Of a stretch of 64,000 nucleotides of DNA, positions 1,829 to 49,092 are shown in pieces; position 1 is the first letter of the stretch; every line of letters begins with the position of its first letter. Both the position numbers and the translations under genes were made by a program. Under the pieces are notes generated by a model. It was not told where the DNA came from. It searched no databases and saw only the letters and a list, made by a program, of their open reading frames with translations. Origin of the DNA: Candidatus Pacearchaeota archaeon (lineage in GTDB: Archaea; Nanobdellota; Nanobdellia; Pacearchaeales; GW2011-AR1); contig JAIFVX010000001.1 in the NCBI GenBank assembly GCA_019659125.1, positions 15,437-79,436 on the forward strand, written 5' to 3'.

Positions 1829-2050
1829 ATGAAAATGCACTATTCTTTGTTTGCCTCGCAAGTAAGGGATTATGATCCATCTCCACTGTCAAAAAAAGAA
1901 CTGATACGTCATATTGTAAGACTAAGCAGATCTACTCAGGAGCTCGAGATGAATCGAGGTACATGCCCGGAAATTGAGTTGTGTCTTCGGGCAGTCAAGT
2001 ATGCTTCAAAAAGAGCGTATCAAGAGGCTATGCGAAAGTACTCTGCATAA
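1829..2050 (+). CDS. hypothetical protein (73 aa), same frame as ORF 1559 and separated from it by a single TAG plus 2 codons
   Basis: ORF track; 6-nt spacing to the previous stop; no recognisable motif. Confidence 0.4.
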   Translation: MKMHYSLFASQVRDYDPSPLSKKELIRHIVRLSRSTQELEMNRGTCPEIELCLRAVKYASKRAYQEAMRKYSA

Positions 2051-2054
2051 TCCT

Positions 2055-3608
2055 ATGGCTGAAAAACACTATGACGCTGACTGGGCAAAAGCAAAATCAC
2101 GTGGCTTAGTTAAAGATATGATTCAGAAGACTATTCTTACATTTAGAAGACCACAGGATCTTAAAGTTCTTTGTTTACCGGGAAGAGATGCAGCAGAGGT
2201 CTACGAAGTTTACGATCCATTAGGTATCTCGCGATATAATATCATTGGTCTAGAGCGAGATCGAAGTATTGCAGAAGAGATTGAAGGAAAGGGATTAGGT
2301 ATCAAAGTAATAAATAAAAGCCTGGAAGAGTATGTAGATAAAAATCATATTTCTTGCCTCGATGTAGTAAGCCTCGATTTTACTGGATATTTACAGAGCT
2401 CCCAGTTAGATGCCCTAAGAAAAATATGTAAAAAATATGCCAATACTAATTGGATACTTCATTGGGCAAATTCCATTAAAAGAGATGGGGCTAGTAATAA
2501 TCTGTACGTACGAGGAGCAGCAAATGATTTTGAAACGGCTGTAAGTAAGTTGAGTGACTTTATAAATAAAGAAAACTCACCAGACAATTCCATAGCGATG
2601 TCTACCGCTAATGTAATGGAAGAGTTTCAAAAAAAGATTTCCAATGGAGAGCTCAGTAAAGATGAAAAAGCTCTTTCAGCTCTCACCTTAGTTAGAGCGA
2701 CGACAGGAGGAGAGTATCTTGATGGGATAGGAAAAATTTTCAAATTCTGTACGGGAAATAAATATGAAGGATATATACAACAGTTGGAGCAGGAAATGGG
2801 GAGGGAGATAGATAGGGAAAACCCCTATAAGTCTATAGGCTATCATCCAATAGTTCGCGACATGTTAGATGAGATTTCATTGACTAGCATTAAGCAAGCT
2901 GCTAAGGAAAATAAGATAGATCCTTTGTTTATATCAACTATCTGGAGTGCATTAGAGCATGCGGCAAGTGAAACTAAGGGGTTTGTGCCGAAAGATACGG
3001 TTACATATTCATATATTTCAGAGTCAGGCAATCCAATGGTTGGAAATGTAAGCTTTCTTTCTCACAACTGGAGATATGATAAAGCCGCAAAAGAGCTTGC
3101 CAGAGCTATAGGATTTCCGAATAAGATGAATTTAAAGGAGGACTATCAATTTTTAATGGCTTGTAAGAAGGCTTCAGATGCGATGCATTCTGAAGGGCGT
3201 TCTCCAGAGGACATAAAGAACATGATGAAAAAAGAGAAGGAAATAGTCTTTCTGGGAAGTTCATCTCGTCCAGTTCTTTCAAAGCAAAGATTTGTAGAGG
3301 AGCTCGAGAATGGGATGTCACTTGATCAGATAAAAGAAAAATACAGAGGATGGGAGAACAAGCCTCTCCCCCAATGGAAAGCTCACGTCACGATGGGAAG
3401 CTACAAGTCAAAAGACTTAGTTGAAGAAGCGGATGAAGATAGTGATCTAGAGAAGATCACAAAAGAGCAGGCAGTGGATTTATTATCTTCAGGTATACCT
3501 GCCGAAGAGATCCATGCAGCATACCCTACATCATTTAGCACTCAGCAATTGCGTGCATATAAAGCCCATGTAACCATGGGCACATATAAAAACGGAAAAG
3601 AAGAATAA
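2055..3608 (+). CDS. hypothetical protein (517 aa) with a Rossmann-like N-terminal region and a duplicated C-terminal KAHVTMG[ST]YK motif
   Basis: Long ORF (track gives 1974; the ATG at 2055 lies 4 nt after the upstream stop and avoids a 77-nt overlap). N-terminus KVLCLPGRDAAEV...NIIGLERD...LDVVSLDFTGY resembles MTase motifs I/II/IV but is non-canonical. C-terminus carries WKAHVTMGSYK and YKAHVTMGTYK. Confidence 0.6.
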   Translation: MAEKHYDADWAKAKSRGLVKDMIQKTILTFRRPQDLKVLCLPGRDAAEVYEVYDPLGISRYNIIGLERDRSIAEEIEGKGLGIKVINKSLEEYVDKNHISCLDVVSLDFTGYLQSSQLDALRKICKKYANTNWILHWANSIKRDGASNNLYVRGAANDFETAVSKLSDFINKENSPDNSIAMSTANVMEEFQKKISNGELSKDEKALSALTLVRATTGGEYLDGIGKIFKFCTGNKYEGYIQQLEQEMGREIDRENPYKSIGYHPIVRDMLDEISLTSIKQAAKENKIDPLFISTIWSALEHAASETKGFVPKDTVTYSYISESGNPMVGNVSFLSHNWRYDKAAKELARAIGFPNKMNLKEDYQFLMACKKASDAMHSEGRSPEDIKNMMKKEKEIVFLGSSSRPVLSKQRFVEELENGMSLDQIKEKYRGWENKPLPQWKAHVTMGSYKSKDLVEEADEDSDLEKITKEQAVDLLSSGIPAEEIHAAYPTSFSTQQLRAYKAHVTMGTYKNGKEE

Positions 3609-5838: not shown

Positions 5839-6159
5839 TTACTCGGAGGTTTCTTTCTCGAGCCTACTGAATTCTTCTACCCAATCATTAAAAAGGTGTC
5901 TTTCGCCATGAGCAAACAAGGATTGATACTCTTCACTTCCCATGATCTTTGCCTGTATGCGTAATTCAACGGTGTTTATCCGTACACAAAGGGAGTTATA
6001 TATGCGTGAGTGGTTATGGTTTTTATCCCTATAATCGCTTGTGTAGTCCCGAAGAACTTGTATTTTTTCTCGAGCATGCTCTCGCAGATCGACAACAATC
6101 GGTTCTTCAACCATCTCTTCATCCGGCTCAGCGTAGACTTCCATCTTATTCCTCGTCAA
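5839..6159 (-). CDS. hypothetical acidic protein (106 aa) between rps7 and fusA
   Basis: ORF co-oriented with the operon; no recognisable motif. Confidence 0.4.
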   Translation of the reverse strand: MTRNKMEVYAEPDEEMVEEPIVVDLREHAREKIQVLRDYTSDYRDKNHNHSRIYNSLCVRINTVELRIQAKIMGSEEYQSLFAHGERHLFNDWVEEFSRLEKETSE

Positions 6160-6212
6160 AACAGAGAATTAAGATTATAAATATTATGGCGATGGATTAT
6201 TTTAAAGAACTA

Positions 6213-6788
6213 TTAATCTCCACTATTACTGTCATTCCAAAAATCTTTAAATCCTGCCCACGCCCTTGACAAAAGTCCTTTCTTTTCTCGAGGAGTCTCT
6301 TCCTTTTTAACACCACATGTGGAACAGTAATTACCATCTCTGAATTGGTGAGTGCACTTAAAGCCACCCGAGTTTCTTACTGAGGGATATGAATTATATA
6401 CGTTATCTACAGATTGAGTCTTAGTGCTTTGCATATGAGCGTGTTTTTCCGATAATGCCTTATAGACAACGTTAGATAGTGCGATCGAACCGGATTTTCC
6501 ATCTGCAAGAGCTTCCAAAGCTGAAATTGCTTCCGATACCGATATATTGGACAGTTTTATCCCATCAACTATTTTTCTCGTAGCTGTATAAAGACTTTCA
6601 ACATACTCTCGTTCTGGAGACTGCTCATCAACGCTTGTAATAAGCTGGATACCTGCATCCAAGGAAATGTTTGCGTTACGAAACAGTTCACTTGTTTGTG
6701 TTGAATAAGATACAAGTTTATCAAGAGTTTCCTTATAGTAAGCTCGTTCACTATAGGTTTCTACCAACTGCGTAATATCCTCTATCAT
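6213..6788 (-). CDS. hypothetical protein (191 aa) with C-terminal C-x-H...C-x2-C zinc-ribbon-like motif
   Basis: ORF co-oriented with the operon, 31 nt downstream of rps7; CTHQFRDGNYCSTCG near the C-terminus. Confidence 0.45.
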   Translation of the reverse strand: MIEDITQLVETYSERAYYKETLDKLVSYSTQTSELFRNANISLDAGIQLITSVDEQSPEREYVESLYTATRKIVDGIKLSNISVSEAISALEALADGKSGSIALSNVVYKALSEKHAHMQSTKTQSVDNVYNSYPSVRNSGGFKCTHQFRDGNYCSTCGVKKEETPREKKGLLSRAWAGFKDFWNDSNSGD

Positions 6789-42271: not shown

Positions 42272-42571
42272 ATGACACTAAATATCTATTCTCATGTTTT
42301 TGAACTCCCGATCACAAAAGTGGAAACACTCCTTCCCTCTGCTTTGCTTGAAGAGATGAAAGAGTTTATGGAACGAAATACCTTAGCAGTATCTCGGCAA
42401 GCGGGAAAAAAGAAAATTCACTGCTGTACACGTTGCTTAAAGGCTCATGCTTTGAAGACAGCGAAGGAAATGAACTTTTTGTACCTGGAAAAATTAATTG
42501 ATAGAATCATCGAAGCAGAAGCAGGGCACAATGGCTATTATATGGATGAGGATGACCTGATTAAGATTTGA
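42272..42571 (+). CDS. hypothetical protein (99 aa)
   Basis: ORF track; CC…C cluster (IHCCTRCLKAH); no family assigned. Confidence 0.35.
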   Translation: MTLNIYSHVFELPITKVETLLPSALLEEMKEFMERNTLAVSRQAGKKKIHCCTRCLKAHALKTAKEMNFLYLEKLIDRIIEAEAGHNGYYMDEDDLIKI

Positions 42572-44540
42572 ATCCTCTTTGCCGGTCGACGAATCGGGAG
42601 ACAAATTCCTTATGTCTGTCACGATCAATGACCTTGATAAGTCTCCAGAGATTTCTTCCCTCAACAAGTTCAGCCTTTATCTTTCCAAGCGCCTTATTTC
42701 TTACAAATTCCGAGATGAATATGTCATTGCTGGCATATTCGGCAAAGTTCTTTGCTGCCGGAAGCGTGTTGCCCCATGAGCTGAATTTTACTTTCCCTTC
42801 AGAGCTTTCGGCAATAAGATCTCCCTTGTGGACTGAGATCCCAAATTCAATCTTCTGTGAGTGATATTTGTTATACTCAAGCAGCGTAGCTTCGATATCG
42901 CTGGCAGCGCTTAATGCTTGTATGACGATATCTTCCTTTATCAATGCAGGTGAAAATACCATGACTCGATATGCTCCGTCAAGGTAGATCTTTGCCCCTA
43001 ATCCGCGTGCTCTCACAAGAGCTTTATCAACAGCTGCAAGAGCATCTGCTGTTCCAGAGAGATTAGCAATATTCTTTACCTTCAGACACACGACTGCAGA
43101 GTCAACCTTTTCAGTCTTAGGAACCATGATTGGCTGTCCCATAGGTCGTGTACTGACAGGTGGCGCGACATAGGTATTTCCAAGCCGTGGCCTTCGTACT
43201 CGTCTGATGATCGCGATGACAATGATTGCAACAAGGACAATAATTATGAATGCAATCCAGAAGTATGTGCTTCCAGGATCTAAGGCCTCTAAGTCTTGTA
43301 CTGAGATCGCCCTGCCCGTGAGTGATGCAACTCCAAGACTTGTACTCTTCTGTCCATCCTGAACCTGAATGGAGTATTCTCCACGAGGTGCATATAATGA
43401 GTATCGTTTCGACTCCCCTACTTCTAGCGATATATCTCGTACTTCTTTTGTATCACCAATAGAAAGCTCAACAAGCTTGTGATAAGGTACGTTTCCTATA
43501 TTGAGAATGCTTATGGTATTGTTATCGCGTATGAACAATGCCTCTTCGTGTTCCTCAACCGAAAAGCTCTTGGTAACAAGGAAATTTCCAAAGTTTGCTG
43601 ATATCTTCCAATTTCCTGGAGTTGCATTAGATTCAAGCTTGTATGCTTGCGCATCCCCAGCTCGTGCAATGCCTCTAAATACACTCGTTCCCCGAGGATC
43701 AGAAAGTGCAATACCAATATCTCCTGTTGCAGGGGCGCCTGACTGATCATAGAGCAAGGCAGTGTAGGTCAATTCCTCTCCAGGAATGACGCTGACAGTA
43801 CTGAGAGCAATATCACTGCTCCGCACAAGCTGTCGCACTCTAAAGAACGTTGTTGCATCTCCTGTATTGATAATCTGGGAGCTGCTGTCTTTTTCATATG
43901 CATTGATTTGCGCTACATAATTTCCTGGAATTGCATCTCCAGGTATGGTAATAACCATGTTGAATGCACCTGCATGAACTGCAGTGAGAAAACTTATATT
44001 GAGAGGCTCTAAGAAAACTGAAGCATAACCTTCAAGGCCTGCACTGTTCCCTTTGATTGCTGTTCCGGAAAGGGATATGGTCTCGCCAGGAGAAAAAACG
44101 CTACCGTTGACTTCCACAAGGACATCGATTCCTTTGCTAATAAGAAATGTCTGAGTATCATGGGCAGCTTCATCCCATTCTACTCGCAAAAAGCATTCAC
44201 CTCCCATCTCCCCGATAAGAGCGCTATCAAGGGTAATTGAAAGAGGAATGGTCTTGGTTTCTCCTGCCTGAAGGGTATAAGGACTTCTGTAAAGTTCAAG
44301 CTCGGCAGCACCACAGAACAACTTTAAGCTTAAATAATCGCTAACGGTGTTTGCAGCATCCATCGTAGCACTGAGAGTGAGCGTGTCTCCCTTACTGTAT
44401 AATGAGTTCGGCTGGGTAAATGATACCTCTGCAGCAGCCATGGGAATGACAAATAAAACTAATAAAATAACGAACAACCCTTTTTTATCAAACCTCATCG
44501 TTTTATCCCGTATTTTTTCTATATAAACCTTGTGCACCAA
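42561..44540 (-). CDS. large surface protein: signal peptide, ~400-aa extracellular region, one TM, and a ~210-aa cytoplasmic domain with cyclase-homology-like pattern
   Basis: Signal peptide MRFDKKGLFVILLVLFVIPMAAA; TM YFWIAFIIIVLVAIIVIAII followed by RRVRRPR. Tail (…AVVCLKVKNIANL…AKIYLDGAYRVMVFS…KIEFGISVHKGDLIAESSEGKVKFSSWGNTLPAAKNFAEYASNDIFISEFV) mirrors the beta-alpha-beta-beta-alpha-beta pattern of class III nucleotidyl cyclase/GGDEF folds but lacks the first metal-binding Asp. Confidence 0.5.
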   Translation of the reverse strand: MVHKVYIEKIRDKTMRFDKKGLFVILLVLFVIPMAAAEVSFTQPNSLYSKGDTLTLSATMDAANTVSDYLSLKLFCGAAELELYRSPYTLQAGETKTIPLSITLDSALIGEMGGECFLRVEWDEAAHDTQTFLISKGIDVLVEVNGSVFSPGETISLSGTAIKGNSAGLEGYASVFLEPLNISFLTAVHAGAFNMVITIPGDAIPGNYVAQINAYEKDSSSQIINTGDATTFFRVRQLVRSSDIALSTVSVIPGEELTYTALLYDQSGAPATGDIGIALSDPRGTSVFRGIARAGDAQAYKLESNATPGNWKISANFGNFLVTKSFSVEEHEEALFIRDNNTISILNIGNVPYHKLVELSIGDTKEVRDISLEVGESKRYSLYAPRGEYSIQVQDGQKSTSLGVASLTGRAISVQDLEALDPGSTYFWIAFIIIVLVAIIVIAIIRRVRRPRLGNTYVAPPVSTRPMGQPIMVPKTEKVDSAVVCLKVKNIANLSGTADALAAVDKALVRARGLGAKIYLDGAYRVMVFSPALIKEDIVIQALSAASDIEATLLEYNKYHSQKIEFGISVHKGDLIAESSEGKVKFSSWGNTLPAAKNFAEYASNDIFISEFVRNKALGKIKAELVEGRNLWRLIKVIDRDRHKEFVSRFVDRQRGFKS

Positions 44541-45123: not shown

Positions 45124-45154
45124 TGTTTATAAATCTAAAACCCATGAGATAGCG

Positions 45155-46294
45155 ATGAAAGAAGAGTTCAGTGTCACTCCATGGGATATTAAGGGAGATA
45201 TTGATTACGACAAACTCATAAAGAAGTTTGGTGTTGAGCCTCTAACTCCATCATTATTAAAAAGGATTGAGAAGACTGTCGGGGAATCCCATTTCATGCT
45301 ACGAAGAGGTATTTTCTTTGCTCATAGGGATATGGAATGGATTCTTGATGAGTACGGAAAAGTAAAGGGCCCTCAACAGGAAAAATTCTTCCTTTACACA
45401 GGAAGAGCTCCCTCAGGTCCAGTTCATATTGGTCATCTTGTTCCATGGGTTTTTACAAAATGGCTGCAAGACAAATTTAATGCTGAACTCTGGTTCCAGT
45501 TTCCCGATGAGGAAAAAGTGCTCATGAAGCAGGATATTACATTCGAAGATACGGCAAAGTACCTGAAAGAGAATATGCTTGATGTGATCGCACTAGGCTT
45601 TAACCCGAAGAAGACCCATTTTCTTATTGACACAAAGCATGCCAATCTGATGTACAAGGAAGCATGCAAGGTCGCTAAGAAAATAACGTTTTCGATGGTG
45701 AAAGCATCATTTGGTCTTAATGAGCAATCTAACATCGGCTCCATATTCTACACTGCTATGCAGGCAGTCCCAGCATTTTTGCCTTCCATTCTATCAAAAC
45801 GGGAAACTCCCTGCCTTATTCCTCACGCCATAGATCAAGATCCTCATTTCAGGCTGACGAGAGATATCTTACCAAAGTTAGGACATTACAAACCAGCATC
45901 AATACAATGCTCCTTCCTTCCCCCATTACAAGGTCGTGGAAAGATGAGCTCTTCCGAAGGTACTGCAATTTACACTACAGACTCCCCTGAAGACGTTGCG
46001 AAGAAGATAAACAAATACGCATTCTCAGGAGGAAAAGATACTCTGGAAGAGCATAGGAAAAAAGGCGGGAACCCTGACATCGATATCTCATTCCAGTATC
46101 TAAGATATTTGTTCGAGCCTGATGACAAGAAGCTTGAGAAAATATACAAAGATTATAAGTCGGGAAAGCTCCTTTCAGGAGATCTAAAGAAAATGACCAT
46201 TGAGAAGATCAATGCCTTCCTCAAAGATCATCAGGAAAAGAGAAAGCACGCAGAACAATTCCTCAACGCATTTATTCTCGAGACGAACGACTAG
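45155..46294 (+). CDS. trpS: tryptophanyl-tRNA synthetase (archaeal/eukaryotic type)
   Basis: 379 aa; class I HIGH (TGRAPSGPVHIGHL) and KMSSS (GKMSSSEG) motifs; length and motifs fit TrpRS rather than TyrRS. Confidence 0.85.
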   Translation: MKEEFSVTPWDIKGDIDYDKLIKKFGVEPLTPSLLKRIEKTVGESHFMLRRGIFFAHRDMEWILDEYGKVKGPQQEKFFLYTGRAPSGPVHIGHLVPWVFTKWLQDKFNAELWFQFPDEEKVLMKQDITFEDTAKYLKENMLDVIALGFNPKKTHFLIDTKHANLMYKEACKVAKKITFSMVKASFGLNEQSNIGSIFYTAMQAVPAFLPSILSKRETPCLIPHAIDQDPHFRLTRDILPKLGHYKPASIQCSFLPPLQGRGKMSSSEGTAIYTTDSPEDVAKKINKYAFSGGKDTLEEHRKKGGNPDIDISFQYLRYLFEPDDKKLEKIYKDYKSGKLLSGDLKKMTIEKINAFLKDHQEKRKHAEQFLNAFILETND

Positions 46295-47000
46295 AATCGA
46301 CTGATTTCATGAGTTTGTAAAGAGCAGGACCTCGTGTCTTAGTCTGATGATACCACTTTGAATCTTTCATCTCTTGAGCGGCAGTTTGATAATCTCCCTT
46401 ATTAATTGCCGTGATGAATTTCTGAAATCCCTCGAACCTTCGAGGTCCCAGGTTGAACATCATATCAGCAACTACTACTTTTACTGCATCAGGTTTACTA
46501 TCATAATCATGGATATAGTGTCGAGCGTGTTTTTCGGCTTCCCTGAGGTCGTGTTCAAATAGTGTATAGATTTGGTCTTGTGATAGGGCTTCCTTCCCTT
46601 GAAGAATTTCGTTATAGTTTGCTCCTACAGATTGAATGAGGTGTGGAGCGTCTTTTCTCTTTAGATTGAATCCAATTCCAATAGTGGGGATCTTTTCGGT
46701 GTCGAAATATCGAACAGGTTTATATCCTTCCTCAACTTTCAGTCTCGTACGCAGCTCATTACGATAAGACTCTTGCCTGATAAGAGGTTTTGATAATGAC
46801 TGAACTTTTTCCTCAAGCTTAGACATTTGTGTTGTAGGGATTTCCTCAGCAGGCTCTTGGATTCCCAGTGTAGGGGGAACCCAGTTAGGATCATACGTAT
46901 CTTCAGGCTTAGAGGAAGGTTGTATACTATAAAGAAACCCGCCTGCAACTACAGACAAGAAACCGGCCATGCCTATCATCCCTTTAGTAACTTTGTTCAT
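46272..47000 (-). CDS. GH24 (T4-lysozyme-like) muramidase with N-terminal Gly/Ala-rich signal-anchor (SAR-endolysin-like architecture)
   Basis: 242 aa; N-terminal weakly hydrophobic TM GMIGMAGFLSVVAGGFLYSI; catalytic region EEGYKPVRYFDTEKIPTIGIGFNL (Glu-Asp-Thr triad spacing of T4 lysozyme); C-terminal …VVVADMMFNLGPRRFEGFQKFITAINKGDYQTAAQEMKDSKWYHQTKTRGPALYKLM parallels T4L …ALINMVFQMGETGVAGF…AKSRWYNQTPNRAKRV. Confidence 0.85.
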   Translation of the reverse strand: MNKVTKGMIGMAGFLSVVAGGFLYSIQPSSKPEDTYDPNWVPPTLGIQEPAEEIPTTQMSKLEEKVQSLSKPLIRQESYRNELRTRLKVEEGYKPVRYFDTEKIPTIGIGFNLKRKDAPHLIQSVGANYNEILQGKEALSQDQIYTLFEHDLREAEKHARHYIHDYDSKPDAVKVVVADMMFNLGPRRFEGFQKFITAINKGDYQTAAQEMKDSKWYHQTKTRGPALYKLMKSVDSSRSSRE

Positions 47001-47260
47001 TTTTGCATTTCCTCGTATGGTATCTTTCCCTCAGTATATCCTGAAGGAAGATATTCTTGCTCTTGATTGTTTCTAGGCGTATTAATATGTGGCTTATATA
47101 CATTATGGCTAGCCCCTTCCTGCTCGACCATATATTCCAAGACATCCCGAGGAGGAAGATCATGTCTCCCATTGTAGGCTTTTCCCAAGAACATGAGAGG
47201 TATACCTACCATTGCTCCAAGGGCATACCCAATTAAAGAATTTCTTCGTTCTTTTTTCAT
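46997..47260 (-). CDS. small one-TM membrane protein (87 aa), holin/pinholin-like, translationally coupled to the lysozyme gene
   Basis: Stop overlaps the lysozyme ATG (ATGA); single TM LIGYALGAMVGIPLMFLG after a basic N-terminus; charged C-terminal tail. Confidence 0.5.
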   Translation of the reverse strand: MKKERRNSLIGYALGAMVGIPLMFLGKAYNGRHDLPPRDVLEYMVEQEGASHNVYKPHINTPRNNQEQEYLPSGYTEGKIPYEEMQK

Positions 47261-47370
47261 AGCTTTTACTCAAAAAGCTGCTATTTAAACCTTGCTATTT
47301 GTACCTATTGCATAGTAACTACATAACCACCTAAGAATATCTTTATAAATATCATTCATTTTCAAAGAGC

Positions 47371-49092
47371 ATGAGAATCATTACTCTCCATTGCGATTAT
47401 ATCAAGTTCAAGCCTCTGAAGAAAGCGTTGAAGTCTGTCGAGGATTTGAAGGATATGAAAGAGAAAGTGGTCAAAGATCCTCTGGTTGTTCTGACAGCTG
47501 TTGAAGAGGGAGACAATGACCAGACAATCAAGCATCTTATTGCATCGATAAAGAAAACAGCAGGAGAGGTAAAGGCGAAGCATATTGTTCTCTATCCCTA
47601 TGCACATTTATCGTCGAATCTAGCAAAGCCCGATACAGCCCTTGGATACCTGGTGGAAGCAGAAGCTGTCCTCAAAAAGGAAGGCTTTGAAGTAACTCGC
47701 GCTCCCTTTGGATACTACAAGGAATTCGAGCTTAAATGCAAGGGTCATCCTCTTTCCGAGCTCTCTCGAGAGTTTCGGACTGATGAGCAGAAGGGAAAAC
47801 TGTCATCTACCCCTCCAAAGAAAGTTGCCAAGGAATCAGGGAAAATAATCTTAGACAGAAGGAATCTGAAGCCTAATGATCACAGGATTTTAGGAGAGGA
47901 TCTGGGAATATTCTATTTAAGCGATGATATTGGTCCCGGCTTGCCTTTGTGGTTGCCTAATGGAGAGACTATTAGAAATGAATTGGAACAATACATGCGT
48001 CAGGTTGAAACACGACATGGTTACAAGTATGTGACGACGCCGCACATTACAAAAGGTCATCTGTATGAGAAAACAGGACATCTTCCATACTATGCAGATA
48101 CAATGTTTTCCCCTATAGAGATTGAAGGTATCAACTATTACTTGAAACCGATGAACTGTCCTCATCACCATATGATCTTCAACAAGCTTGTGAAGAGTTA
48201 CCGAGATTTGCCTTTACGATTGGCGGAGCCAGGAGTAGTCTATCGTAATGAACTTTCAGGTGTAACCTATGGATTAATGAGAGTACGCCATATCATGCAG
48301 AATGATGCACACATCTATATCACTCCTGACCAATTGAAAGCAGAGTTTGTCAAAGTCCTTGAACTGTTCAATGAAGTGTATAAGGTAATGGGAATAAAAG
48401 ACTATTATTTTAGACTTTCCCTTCCCGACTTTAAGGGAAACCCTGAGAAATATAGTGGGGATCCCACGGAATGGGAATTTGCATCCGAAGAAATTAGAAA
48501 GGCAATGAAGCAATGGGGTGGCAAATTTACTGAGGAAAAGGGAGAGGCTGCATTCTACGGCCCTAAGATTGATGTGCAGGTAAAGAATGCTAATGGCAAG
48601 GAAGAAACGCTTGCAACAGTACAAGTTGATATTGTCGTTCCTAAACGATTGAACCTCGTGTATGTCGACGAGAAAGGCGAGAAAAAGACTCCGATCGTCA
48701 TCCATAGAGCGATACTAGGAAGTTATGAGCGATTTGTTGCATTCCTTCTCGAGCAGACTGAAGGCAAATTGCCTTTCTGGCTTTCCCCCATTCAAGTGAG
48801 AATTGTCAACTTCACAGACAGGAACGTAAAAGCAGCGGAAAAAATACTTGCTCAGATAAGGAAAGAGCTTCCCTCATTACGTATAGAATCAGATTTTAGA
48901 AACACTACCGTAAATGACAAGGTTCGTGATTCAGAACTACTAAAGATTCCATATATAGTTGTTATCGGCGACAAAGAAGAGGAAAAAAATACTCTGGCAG
49001 TCAGAGAAAGGGGAAGCGCAAAGCCAAAATTCGGAGTCTCCTTAAATGACTTTATAAAAGAAATAAAACATAAGACCGAACAGCGCGAGTGA
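47371..49092 (+). CDS. thrS: threonyl-tRNA synthetase, archaeal type with N-terminal archaea-specific editing domain
   Basis: 573 aa; class II core (…FRLSLPDFKG…HRAILGSYERFVAFLLEQTEGKLPFWLSPIQVRIV…) and anticodon-binding domain; N-terminal ~140 aa are not the bacterial N1/N2 type. Confidence 0.9.
   Translation: MRIITLHCDYIKFKPLKKALKSVEDLKDMKEKVVKDPLVVLTAVEEGDNDQTIKHLIASIKKTAGEVKAKHIVLYPYAHLSSNLAKPDTALGYLVEAEAVLKKEGFEVTRAPFGYYKEFELKCKGHPLSELSREFRTDEQKGKLSSTPPKKVAKESGKIILDRRNLKPNDHRILGEDLGIFYLSDDIGPGLPLWLPNGETIRNELEQYMRQVETRHGYKYVTTPHITKGHLYEKTGHLPYYADTMFSPIEIEGINYYLKPMNCPHHHMIFNKLVKSYRDLPLRLAEPGVVYRNELSGVTYGLMRVRHIMQNDAHIYITPDQLKAEFVKVLELFNEVYKVMGIKDYYFRLSLPDFKGNPEKYSGDPTEWEFASEEIRKAMKQWGGKFTEEKGEAAFYGPKIDVQVKNANGKEETLATVQVDIVVPKRLNLVYVDEKGEKKTPIVIHRAILGSYERFVAFLLEQTEGKLPFWLSPIQVRIVNFTDRNVKAAEKILAQIRKELPSLRIESDFRNTTVNDKVRDSELLKIPYIVVIGDKEEEKNTLAVRERGSAKPKFGVSLNDFIKEIKHKTEQRE

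Follow-up and report, generated by a model that had tools for sequence, protein, structure and literature searches.

A position of varied occupancy between two tRNA synthetase genes holds a T4-type lysozyme

We identified in the chromosome of a Candidatus Pacearchaeota archaeon (575,302-bp contig, NCBI) a gene for a 242-aa GH24 (T4-type) lysozyme that fills a conserved position between the genes for Trp-tRNA synthetase (TrpRS) and Thr-tRNA synthetase (ThrRS). In related Pacearchaeota and Woesearchaeota this slot is either empty or occupied by a single exported protein that acts on cell walls, the occupants representing at least five families. The lysozyme gene (46272..47000, minus strand; MBX4196025.1, “glycoside hydrolase family protein”), which we recognized from its ORF and from Pfam, PDB and AlphaFold/Foldseek matches, is probably a long-resident muramidase gene of the Pacearchaeota chromosome whose product works outside the cell. 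Coordinates refer to the window, the 64-kb stretch of DNA that was analyzed. TrpRS (45155..46294, plus strand; Pfam PF00579, 3.7e-29) bounds the slot on the left; its 3′ end is convergent with that of the lysozyme gene and overlaps it by 23 nt. The right border is ThrRS (47371..49092, plus strand; Pfam PF08915, PF00587 and PF03129, and synteny), transcribed divergently from the promoter of a unit comprising the lysozyme gene and the gene of an orphan single-pass membrane protein of 87 aa (46997..47260, minus strand; MBX4196026.1, KW805_00355). The stop codon of the 87-aa ORF overlaps the lysozyme start in an ATGA (46997-47000) that reads “tcat” on the plus strand. Both ORFs, their overlap and the two-gene unit had been proposed in a preliminary description of this DNA, and our analysis bears them out.

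The pair is surrounded by housekeeping genes. The neighboring ThrRS carries the archaea-specific editing domain PF08915 (Pfam, 2.4e-46), and the 64 kb also encode EF-1alpha, EF-2 and an Rpb1/Rpb2-type RNA polymerase, upholding the earlier assignment to an archaeal chromosome. Searches of Pfam, the window ORFs and repeats recovered no phage structural genes, integrase or att-like or flanking repeats near the lysozyme locus, and the GC content of the two-gene unit (0.41) resembles that of its flanks. The earlier view that the locus is not a prophage stands.

Catalytic domain and relationship to phage lysozymes

The Pfam profile PF00959 (Phage_lysozyme) matched the 242-aa protein with an E-value of 4.7e-11 (43.5 bits, against a cut-off of 22.3) and a PHROG endolysin profile matched it at 2.8e-16. 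The best PDB sequence matches were the lysozyme domain of T4 gp5 (1e-11) and T4 lysozyme (4e-10), and Foldseek also retrieved T4 lysozyme from the PDB (probability 1.0; TM ~0.75 relative to the target). The catalytic domain spans approximately residues 81-235 (46296..46760, minus strand), as delimited by alignment A1 and by AlphaFold, which modeled residues 81-230 with pLDDT values of at least 91. Within it, the triad E91-x8-D100-x5-T106 aligns with E11, D20 and T26 of T4 lysozyme; we read its codons by eye at 46728-46730, 46701-46703 and 46683-46685, respectively. Across the 30 homologues of alignment A1, E91 and T106 never vary, and D100 shows at least 90% conservation. With a significant profile match and an intact triad, the protein is a true GH24 lysozyme, as had been claimed. 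T4 lysozyme and the T4 gp5 domain have the two-lobed alpha/beta fold and the E-x8-D-x5-T motif in common with the archaeal enzyme, at ~24-27% identity. Unlike the phage gene for T4 lysozyme, however, the chromosomal gene of the archaeon encodes an N-terminal extension of ~90 residues (signal or anchor, spacer and stalk helix) and an insertion of ~6-20 residues after the TIGIGFNL motif, the latter common to its subfamily (P0002-P0014). No cell-wall-binding domain could be recognized, PF00959 being the only Pfam match at E ≤0.1.

GH24 is predominantly a phage family, and phage proteins are found among the relatives of the archaeal enzyme: one (P0012) shares its contig with an SU10-type capsid gene, and there are 1267 matching phage records. 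Such kinship might be expected if a block of two genes had passed from a bacteriophage into the archaeal chromosome and had recently been domesticated or was decaying there as a remnant of a phage or prophage, yet we consider this origin very unlikely. Identity to GenBank phages reaches 33-36% at best (38-44% anywhere), and the 87-aa ORF has no phage homologue in PHROG. In addition to the matching GC content and the lack of phage genes, integrase and att-like repeats nearby, the codon usage of both genes is native-like (log-likelihood ratio, LLR, of 0.248 for the lysozyme, in a training range of 0.154-0.499), their promoter obeys the leaderless rule of the host, and GH24 proteins recur at the same position in other archaea, as described below. 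In the GH24 tree, archaeal monophyly received a bootstrap of 16%, and of 0% when the window protein was included, values compatible with vertical descent as well as with repeated acquisition.

Promoter and translational coupling

A TATA-like box (TTTAAATA; 47282..47289, minus strand) lies upstream of the 87-aa ORF, its end exactly 21 nt from the start codon, and is the putative leaderless promoter of the two genes. The same distance of 21 nt between octamer and ATG recurs at 12 genes in the window, including the 87-aa ORF, TrpRS and ThrRS (the latter with its box at 47342-47349). The sequence upstream of the lysozyme, the second cistron, holds no TATA box of its own; a GAGG Shine-Dalgarno-like motif (47011..47014, minus strand) lies 10 nt upstream of the lysozyme ATG, within the 87-aa ORF. 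Transcription from the leaderless-placed box would thus yield a two-gene transcript with the membrane protein as first cistron, and the lysozyme would be translated from the GAGG site and coupled via the ATGA overlap. These signals largely establish the predicted two-gene leaderless transcript with coupled translation of the lysozyme.

Occupants of the slot in related archaea

With TrpRS we retrieved 80 orthologous loci and searched them by tblastn and HMMs, followed by Pfam; the slot pattern they reveal is based on MAG contigs and in-house ORF calls. The slot proteins are encoded on the minus strand, convergent with TrpRS and from immediately to ~660 nt downstream of it. GH24 lysozymes of the same subfamily occupy this position in four other Pace/Woesearchaeota MAGs (L013, L046, L051 and L069; TrpRS identity 67-72%), and a distant GH24 occupies it in L055. 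Elsewhere the slot holds SLT + PG_binding_1 proteins (L004 and L005), SleB-like Hydrolase_2 proteins (L008, L024, L035 and L037, with L066 and L017 as weaker cases), an Amidase_3 protein (L039) or a LysM protein (L012). Most related genomes have an empty slot or unrelated genes in it; TrpRS and ThrRS are only 3-185 nt apart in the empty slots of L009, L010, L018, L030 and L044. When profiles were run on all ORFs of at least 50 aa in 82 loci and the window, the slot families were confined to the slot, except for GH24 in the query loci L001 and L002. Of 285 downstream ORFs, 13 belonged to slot families, compared with none of the 501 upstream ORFs (Fisher p = 1.6e-6), the upstream ones being screened by BLAST clustering and home-made profiles rather than Pfam. 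In the TrpRS tree, 10 of the 11 informative members of the window's clade encode an exported slot protein, and these 10 proteins belong to four families, three of recognized wall hydrolases and one unknown. Every slot protein begins with a signal, lipobox-like or transmembrane (TM) segment in which Gly, Ala, Ser and Thr make up a fraction of 0.38-0.62, the exception being one L006 paralogue without a hydrophobic N-terminus. Such a segment is missing from most of the phage-like relatives.

We tentatively propose that the gap is a dedicated, fast-turnover “bacterial-wall hydrolase slot” of a Pacearchaeales clade, a reading that we regard as possible rather than probable. One exported enzyme may have been replaced repeatedly by non-homologous ones with similar anchors (GH24, SLT + PG_binding_1, SleB-like Hydrolase_2, Amidase_3, a LysM protein and an unknown Cys/His family). 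If true, the slot would act as a determinant of specificity toward those bacteria that these archaea attach to, feed on or fight, and would provide genomic evidence that members of this DPANN clade depend on bacterial rather than archaeal interactions. A bolder extension of the proposal is that the shared type of anchor could permit a regulated, SAR (signal-arrest-release)-like release of the slot enzymes. Such a shared position whose occupants swap between families seems to be previously undescribed.

The lysozyme N-terminus resembles a SAR domain in composition only

The lysozyme starts with MNKVTK, which contributes two lysines (K3 and K6), followed by an uncharged run (residues 7-26, GMIGMAGFLSVVAGGFLYSI; 46923..46982, minus strand) that hydropathy and composition identify as a weakly hydrophobic N-terminal signal or anchor. 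Its mean Kyte-Doolittle hydropathy is 1.66 and its Gly/Ala/Ser/Thr fraction 0.45 (9/20), compared to typical hydropathies of 1.7-3.0 and a median fraction of 0.305 for the 24 TM-like segments of the window. The helix is unusually weakly hydrophobic for this genome, and its hydropathy is among the lowest TM-like values of the window. This corroborates the Gly/Ala/Ser-rich, weakly hydrophobic helix of the preliminary description, in which the locus was headlined as a phage-style lysis cassette of a pinholin and a SAR endolysin. SAR domains have two to three basic residues and then ~20 uncharged residues, about half of them weakly hydrophobic (PMC9239132), a composition to which the archaeal segment conforms as a weakly hydrophobic TM domain behind basic residues. 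SAR endolysins such as P1 Lyz, phage 21 R and Mu gp22 likewise combine a lysozyme-superfamily domain with an N-terminal uncharged Gly/Ala/Ser-rich helix after a short basic stretch and, as at the archaeal locus, a small membrane-protein gene adjoins the endolysin gene in the S21 68 system. These likenesses and the translational coupling of the two archaeal genes would suit a functional phage-type module for lysis or regulated release, in which an inactive, membrane-held SAR endolysin is freed by a (pin)holin- or releasin-like 87-aa partner via the membrane potential. We nonetheless judge such a module highly improbable, on the evidence of both proteins and of the locus.

The SAR domain of SAR endolysins lies directly against the catalytic core, into which it refolds (PMC9239132). 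In Mu gp22, for example, the SAR domain (residues 6-25) and the catalytic Glu 37 are ~11 residues apart (PMC9239132), whereas 64 residues separate the end of the archaeal helix (residue 26) from E91. Rather than directly adjoining the catalytic domain, the helix is followed by residues 27-91 (46728..46922, minus strand), which AlphaFold models as a Pro/Glu-rich, low-confidence spacer (27-55; pLDDT 42-67 at residues 21-60) and a long helix (56-91) leading into the catalytic domain. Because the spacer and this helix intervene, the kind of refolding into the core that is known from SAR enzymes would be impossible for the N-terminal helix, and the long distance and disordered spacer speak against a SAR endolysin identity. 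No homologue covers residues 27-91, matches spanning only the C-terminal 56-69% of the query, and 74 of the 76 metagenomic relatives of this GH24 subfamily are without any N-terminal extension. Further, unrelated slot hydrolases (SLT, Hydrolase_2 and Amidase_3) have N-termini of the same composition, which therefore marks the exported hydrolases of these archaea and not phage SAR ancestry. The genomic setting differs as well: instead of a phage or prophage lysis cassette in a murein-walled host, the gene lies in an archaeal TrpRS-ThrRS gap that is syntenic in other Pace/Woesearchaeota MAGs. An archaeon without murein would also offer such a module nothing to lyse from within. The definitive test of a SAR domain is its release from the membrane upon depolarization or by a pinholin (PMC9239132).

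The 87-aa protein is probably a lineage-specific accessory and not a holin

The 87-aa protein has a basic N-terminus (MKKERRN), a sole hydrophobic segment (residues 8-26, SLIGYALGAMVGIPLMFLG; 47183..47239, minus strand; Kyte-Doolittle 1.89) and a hydrophilic tail of ~60 residues whose net charge, counted from the sequence, is negative. AlphaFold modeled a single helix (residues 9-30) and the remainder at low confidence, with an ectodomain predicted to be disordered (pLDDT ~51). Since the N-terminus is basic, the positive-inside rule predicts an N-in/C-out topology. By contrast, the pinholin prototype S21 68 has two TM helices and is N-in and C-in (PMC9636201), and the one TM segment of the 87-aa protein speaks against a pinholin identity. 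The predicted topology agrees with that of class III holins (T4 T type: one TM domain, N-in/C-out, large periplasmic domain), but the ectodomain is only ~60 residues long, predicted disordered and without homology.

No Pfam or PHROG family matched the 87-aa protein at E ≤0.1, including any holin or pinholin profile. Among 5.8 billion proteins the query matched only itself, and among 1.84 billion representatives just three spurious repeat proteins; no relatives were found in metagenome DNA, and tblastn against 82 loci returned no match. No related locus has a small N-terminal-TM ORF upstream of its slot hydrolase, where other neighbors or none are found. Neither membership in a holin family nor a conserved pairing with an endolysin is borne out by these results, and the conservation at orthologous loci that the preliminary description had itself made a requirement was seen at none of them. 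We conclude that the protein is probably a lineage-specific accessory, which is not found with other slot hydrolases, and that it is not a holin. Thus, with its 64-residue spacer, a non-conserved one-TM partner without holin homology and no murein to lyse, the locus is unlike SAR systems, and the headline of a phage-style lysis cassette does not survive. For annotation, the case cautions that a Gly/Ala-rich N-terminal helix and a small membrane-protein ORF are insufficient to call a SAR endolysin and a pinholin.

The 87-aa protein bears a weak, non-significant likeness to the anchor at the N-terminus of the lysozyme in L069 (z = 3.7; p ~0.01 by shuffling, over 19 comparisons). The 87-aa ORF could also be a young lineage-specific gene, possibly de novo or a remnant, with no role in the function of a lysozyme that works alone. 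Its lack of homologues at any sensitivity, its predicted disordered ectodomain and the slot hydrolases that do without such a partner at related loci would be in keeping with this, as would the likeness to the L069 anchor. We find the idea rather doubtful, given that the codon usage of the ORF equals that of bona fide genes (in-frame LLR 0.292, above all 59 spurious nested ORFs), that its ATG has exactly the spacing of the leaderless promoters and that it is translationally coupled to the lysozyme. Because of this codon usage, spacing and coupling, the 87-aa protein is almost certainly made, and made together with the lysozyme, as judged from the DNA.

Predicted action on bacterial walls

A basic N-terminus followed by a weakly hydrophobic segment of 20 residues would direct the lysozyme into the Sec pathway, the segment then being retained as a type II anchor or cleaved. 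The disordered Pro/Glu-rich spacer (~30 residues) and the helical stalk (~35 residues) would keep the catalytic domain off the membrane, where E91, D100 and T106 would hydrolyze the MurNAc-beta-1,4-GlcNAc bonds of bacterial peptidoglycan. The substrate could be a bacterial partner, prey, competitor or wall debris; the most likely target of this predicted exported muramidase would be the walls of neighboring bacteria. The evidence favors a reading that had been offered earlier as a fallback, namely a factor with which a possibly episymbiotic archaeon lyses bacteria or interacts with its host. To our knowledge, archaea lack murein, lysozymes leave the beta-1,3 linkages of pseudomurein intact and no Pacearchaeota have been cultured.

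A housekeeping autolysin whose substrate is a wall of murein-like or pseudomurein-like material, made by the archaeon itself or by an archaeal host, might share some of the observed features, such as the conservation of the slot within one clade, expected of a cell-envelope function, and the predicted export of its enzymes. It is exceedingly unlikely, however, in view of the missing murein and of pseudomurein linkages that resist lysozymes. According to Strock et al. (PMC12352652), only two archaeal peptidoglycan hydrolases come from pseudomurein-making classes. Further, most related genomes have no gene or unrelated genes in the slot, which in others swaps bond specificities (muramidase, lytic transglycosylase and amidase); such swapping and absences are more readily reconciled with an accessory, diversifying function than with an essential role.

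Peptidoglycan hydrolases are already known in these archaea. Pacearchaeota and Woesearchaeota encode extracellular murein-lytic proteins that have been read as a sign of bacterial interaction (PMC8204110, PMC9723730), and peptidoglycan hydrolases of archaea have been reported to kill bacteria and to feature prominently in Nanoarchaeota, with Pacearchaeales entries in the published table (Strock et al., 2025, PMC12352652). Examples include Woldo and Danwoldo, two modular enzymes of Halogranum salarium (Strock et al., 2025, PMC12352652), and the GH25 muramidase of Aciduliprofundum boonei, an antibacterial hydrolase (Metcalf, 2014, as cited in PMC12352652). As far as sequence can tell, the GH24 enzyme shares with the hydrolases of A. 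boonei and H. salarium the combination of a murein-cleaving family, a murein-less organism and an export signal. The catalytic families differ, however (GH24 here; GH25, M23 or glucosaminidase in the A. boonei and Strock et al. enzymes), and the window lysozyme is apparently membrane-anchored via a long linker, whereas the Strock-type enzymes are Tat-secreted. PF00959, matched by the 242-aa protein, is on the catalytic-domain list of Strock et al. (2025), but the protein, with PF00959 only and no cell-wall-binding domain, falls outside their definition of “modular”. At a fixed position that holds other murein hydrolases in relatives, a predicted exported muramidase gives concrete evidence of these archaea acting on bacterial walls, and the slot enzymes are testable reagents for finding bacterial partners among co-occurring bacteria. 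The giant lytic transglycosylase (GH23) proteins of Pacearchaeota and Woesearchaeota, which carry an SLT-type domain and reach ~3000 aa (Castelle, 2021, PMC8204110; Vigneron, 2022, PMC9723730), come from the same lineages and have the same proposed role, to bind or degrade the walls of bacterial partners or prey, though the window enzyme is a single-domain GH24 of 242 aa. The small SLT + PG_binding_1 slot proteins (L004 and L005) are closer analogues of these giant proteins than is the GH24 lysozyme.

A GH24 lysozyme gene in an archaeal chromosome

The lysozyme gene (46272..47000, (-); NCBI MBX4196025.1, 'glycoside hydrolase family protein') encodes 242 aa and is preceded on the same strand by an 87-aa ORF (46997..47260, (-); MBX4196026.1, 'hypothetical protein KW805_00355'). 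An ATGA overlap ('tcat' at 46997-47000 on the + strand) joins the stop codon of the 87-aa ORF to the start codon of the lysozyme gene. The left neighbour is the convergent gene for Trp-tRNA synthetase (TrpRS; 45155..46294, (+)), whose 3' end overlaps that of the lysozyme gene by 23 nt. To the right lies the divergent gene for Thr-tRNA synthetase (ThrRS; 47371..49092, (+)) with its archaea-specific editing domain. Other genes in the window encode EF-1alpha, EF-2, Rpb1/Rpb2-type RNA polymerase subunits, ribonucleotide reductase, GluRS and PPDK, and a 544-aa ORF with a TTG start (1974-3608, (+)) lies among the translation-factor genes and had no Pfam match at E <=1e-5. In NCBI, both proteins come from a 575,302-bp Candidatus Pacearchaeota archaeon contig. 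The GC content of the two-gene cassette (0.41) is the same as that of its flanks, and a search for insertion scars around 46272-47370 returned short chance repeats only, one of them formed by the two TATA boxes, and no att-like repeats. The setting is chromosomal and non-prophage, in a DPANN archaeon, and its housekeeping neighbours bear out the preliminary description, which had seen no prophage here.

The 242-aa protein matched the Pfam Phage_lysozyme profile (43.5 bits, cut-off 22.3) and PHROG endolysin families, and its best PDB sequence matches were the T4 gp5 lysozyme domain and T4 lysozyme (1e-11 to 4e-10). The canonical E-x8-D-x5-T motif corresponds to E91, D100 and T106; across 30 aligned homologues, E91 and T106 were invariant and D100 was at least 90% conserved. 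An AlphaFold model built from this alignment had a pLDDT of at least 91 over residues 81-230 and retrieved T4 lysozyme structures with Foldseek (probability 1.0, TM ~0.75 relative to the target). Every computable GH24 feature was thus found, so that the family assignment is secure and the T4-lysozyme core recognised earlier stands. The protein would be expected to have lysozyme activity.

A putative slot for unrelated wall hydrolases between TrpRS and ThrRS

TrpRS-based retrieval yielded 80 loci from Pacearchaeota, Woesearchaeota and 'Nanoarchaeota' MAGs (TrpRS 65-89% identical), with at least 700 nt downstream of TrpRS in 71 of them. The common gene order is MG2-domain protein, TrpRS, gap, ThrRS and a 234-aa protein. 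The gap, hereafter the slot, spans 3 nt to ~3.8 kb, and empty slots occur, with TrpRS and ThrRS 3-185 nt apart. In four loci (L051, L013, L046 and L069; L numbers denote related loci on MAG contigs), a GH24 gene (30-40% identity) is positioned and oriented like that of the window and thus converges on TrpRS. Elsewhere the slot holds a GH24 protein of a different subfamily (L055; Pfam 4e-45), SLT plus PG_binding_1 (L004, L005), SleB-type Hydrolase_2 (L008, L024, L035, L037 and, less clearly, L066 and L017), Amidase_3 (L039), a LysM protein with a Tat signal (L012) or exported proteins of unknown family (L006, L036, L023). When all ORFs of 50 aa or longer in the related loci and the window were searched with profiles, these wall-acting families were confined to the slot, apart from the two GH24 query loci (L001, L002). 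They accounted for 13 of 285 downstream ORFs versus none of 501 upstream ORFs (Fisher p = 1.6e-6), the upstream ORFs in this count having been screened by BLAST clusters and our own profiles, not Pfam. The positional association with other murein hydrolases is conserved. In the TrpRS tree, 10 of the 11 informative members of the window clade have an exported slot protein. Of the four families represented, three are recognised wall hydrolases and the fourth is unknown; in several other clades no member has such a slot protein.

The closest relative, L003 (contig JAIFVW010000006.1, TrpRS 89% identical), is uninformative on the cassette, as its contig breaks off within the 3' part of TrpRS. Contigs of about nine other MAG loci also end near TrpRS, several within 900 nt after it; a slot that varies between strains could have interrupted the assembly there.

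One uncharacterised slot family comprises two ORFs in L006 (8100-8630 and 8637-9287, both (-)) and one in L036 (3803-4366, (-)), two of the three having an N-terminal hydrophobic segment. It had no Pfam, PHROG or PDB-sequence match, and its invariant Cys (NCAxYAR) and YTH His suggest a papain-like (NlpC/CHAP-type) wall peptidase. Small ORFs accompany some slots. A soluble ORF of ~130 aa overlaps or abuts the slot hydrolase directly upstream in L013 (8790-9194, (-)) and L036 (4363-4746, (-)), and ORFs of similar size occur in L004 (8860-9303) and L008 (4001-4420). The L013 and L036 proteins clustered by BLAST and had no Pfam match; some slot enzymes may have a conserved partner in this protein. 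Just upstream of ThrRS, unannotated + strand ORFs in L004 (9404-9847), L006 (10017-10439), L013 (9786-10103) and L050 (8786-9223) have in common an N-terminal motif resembling TLRxYLEExLGI. On the far side of TrpRS, the MG2 gene of the window (42561-44540, (-)) encodes a 659-aa protein with a signal peptide, an MG2 (alpha-2-macroglobulin-type) domain, a TM segment (423-445) and a cytoplasmic tail, and is syntenic with TrpRS in 36 of the 80 loci. The annotated TTG start of this gene, which makes it overlap the divergent HD-domain gene by 11 nt, could be a misannotation.

In the literature searched, we found no description of a fixed site between TrpRS and ThrRS where unrelated wall hydrolases take each other's place; whether such genes cluster is a question that Strock et al. 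expressly leave open (PMC12352652). We regard this candidate pattern as the most interesting outcome of the analysis.

The N-terminal helix does not mark a SAR endolysin

Residues 7-26 (GMIGMAGFLSVVAGGFLYSI), preceded by MNKVTK, are the sole hydrophobic segment of the 242-aa protein. Their mean Kyte-Doolittle hydropathy is 1.66 and their Gly/Ala/Ser/Thr fraction 0.45; in the 24 TM-like segments of the window, the median of this fraction is 0.305 and hydropathy is mostly higher. The Hessa-scale insertion energy is ~+1.8 kcal/mol (indicative only). The Gly/Ala/Ser-rich, weakly hydrophobic helix of the preliminary description is therefore real, and its composition fits the published description of SAR domains (PMC9239132). 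In SAR endolysins, however, the SAR helix directly adjoins the catalytic core, into which it refolds, as in Mu gp22, with the SAR domain at residues 6-25 and the catalytic Glu at 37 (PMC9239132). The catalytic Glu of the archaeal protein lies 64 residues beyond the end of the helix, and the AlphaFold model has a low-confidence Pro/Glu-rich stretch (27-55) followed by a single long helix (56-91) leading into the catalytic domain.

Slot proteins of any family begin with a short basic stretch followed by a hydrophobic segment in which Gly, Ala, Ser and Thr together make up a fraction of 0.38-0.62, the sole exception being one L006 paralogue without a hydrophobic N-terminus. Some of these signals look cleavable (L046, ...ALTVQA|ETLEQ; L051, ...TAFS|HLES), others have lipobox-like N-termini (L008, LVAGC; L013, VGGC), and L069 and L055 combine an anchor with a long charged linker, as does the window protein. 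Because the same composition recurs across slot proteins of every family, the weakly hydrophobic helix is, on this comparison, a general property of the predicted exported wall hydrolases of these organisms, not a sign of phage SAR ancestry. On two computable grounds, the distance from helix to catalytic Glu and the location in an archaeal chromosome instead of a phage lysis cassette, the protein falls outside the SAR endolysin class as defined, to which it had been assigned. A class III (archaeal type IV pilin-like) signal at 'KG|MIGM' was provisionally rejected as well: the site departs from the FlaFind-type pattern at the third post-cut residue, and the orthologues have no such motif in common.

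The upstream gene does not encode a pinholin

In all probability, the 87-aa ORF is a genuine gene. Scored in frame, its codon usage (0.292) is close to the average for 15 bona fide genes (0.294), and each of the 59 spurious ORFs that lie within these genes scored lower (maximum 0.261). Exactly 21 nt separate its ATG from the end of a TATA-like octamer, TTTAAATA (47282-47289). Twelve window genes, this one and those for TrpRS and ThrRS among them, have a TATA-like octamer (TTTAAATA or TTTATAAA) at this distance from the ATG; other sites are 45126-45133 and 47342-47349. Such spacing indicates a leaderless-transcript signature, and leaderless transcripts would be predominant in this Pacearchaeote. 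The lysozyme ORF is without a TATA-like box; a GAGG motif lies 10 nt before its ATG, and this ATG overlaps the stop codon of the 87-aa ORF. As a TATA-like box precedes only the 87-aa ORF, and the lysozyme start has GAGG and the stop overlap, the two genes form, at the sequence level, one operon and would be expressed as such.

The single-TM ORF and its ATGA overlap are as first described: one hydrophobic segment (8-26) follows MKKERRN and precedes a hydrophilic tail of ~60 residues, which is net negative by residue count, and the model shows a helix at 9-30 and little else. No family in Pfam or PHROG matched the protein, no homologue was found among 5.8 billion proteins, and no relative was found in metagenome DNA. 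A full HMMER search of 1.84 billion representatives gave only three matches (P0061-P0063), all of them long proteins with ankyrin-like, WAP-like or low-complexity repeats and each scored by summing 5-8 weak stretches; we judged them spurious and rejected them as homologues. By tblastn, the ORF had no match in any related locus. We also considered that the ORF is a remnant of the N-terminal anchor of a former slot occupant; the best local alignment, with the N-terminus of the L069 lysozyme, was not significant (z = 3.7, shuffle p ~0.01 over 19 comparisons).

Slot hydrolases have no upstream neighbour in L051, L023, L035 and L055; elsewhere the neighbour is a 134-aa soluble protein (L013), a nucleotidyltransferase (L046) or an 85-aa Cys-rich soluble protein (L069). 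The only other small membrane ORF beside a slot hydrolase, a 92-aa ORF with a C-terminal hydrophobic tail-anchor (L055 8207-8485, (-)), lies downstream of the TM-anchored GH24 gene and is unrelated to the 87-aa ORF. With a single hydrophobic segment, no Pfam or PHROG family and absence from related loci, the 87-aa protein is, on these three computable counts, not the pinholin that had been proposed.

Origin of the GH24 gene

The closest proteins anywhere are only 38-44% identical to the 242-aa protein, and the best cultured-phage matches (Synechococcus, Helicobacter and Pelagibacter phages) 33-36%. Among these closest relatives is the signal-peptide GH24 protein P0005 (43% identical), encoded at 6001-6579 of a 245-kb contig (L001) where its neighbours have almost no Pfam matches. 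The catalytic core is likely ultimately of phage or bacterial origin, given the distribution of the GH24 family. Of 76 metagenomic relatives of the subfamily, 74 are without an N-terminal extension and have the catalytic Glu at about residue 14, the pattern of soluble phage endolysins. The 80 GH24 loci retrieved from JGI metagenomes look like soluble phage endolysins, and TrpRS or ThrRS accompanied none of them. Cellular versions such as P0002-P0005 have classical signal peptides, and an export module appears to have been added to these archaeal, and some bacterial-like, forms. In the neighbour-joining tree, bootstrap values for a single origin of the archaeal genes were 16% for the four archaeal slot GH24 orthologues together and 0% with the window protein added, too low to decide between one origin and several. 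In this genome the lysozyme gene is old and resident, and the codon usage and GC content of the cassette are native. We saw no sign that the lysozyme and 87-aa genes arrived together.

Proposed role

The locus combines an intact GH24 domain, an N-terminal export-type segment and, at the sequence level, a two-gene operon with a host-type promoter. We infer that the lysozyme is exported via Sec and then anchored or secreted, the flexible spacer and stalk presenting the catalytic domain beyond the membrane, where it would hydrolyse the bacterial peptidoglycan of a partner, prey, competitor or debris. The 87-aa protein would be made with the enzyme and be dispensable for the class as a whole. Related loci and protein architecture thus favour the anti-bacterial, non-prophage lysozyme of the preliminary description and argue against its phage-style lysis cassette of SAR endolysin and pinholin. 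Wall-lytic genes in the same lineages have been read likewise (PMC8204110; PMC9723730), and archaeal peptidoglycan hydrolases have been shown able to kill bacteria (PMC12352652). The 242-aa protein would work like the archaeal antibacterial hydrolases already described. Having no wall-binding domain, it falls outside the 'modular' class of Strock et al. The gene itself is of a known kind, already auto-annotated and ordinary for this lineage; hydrolases of Pacearchaeales are already in the table of Strock et al. (PMC12352652).
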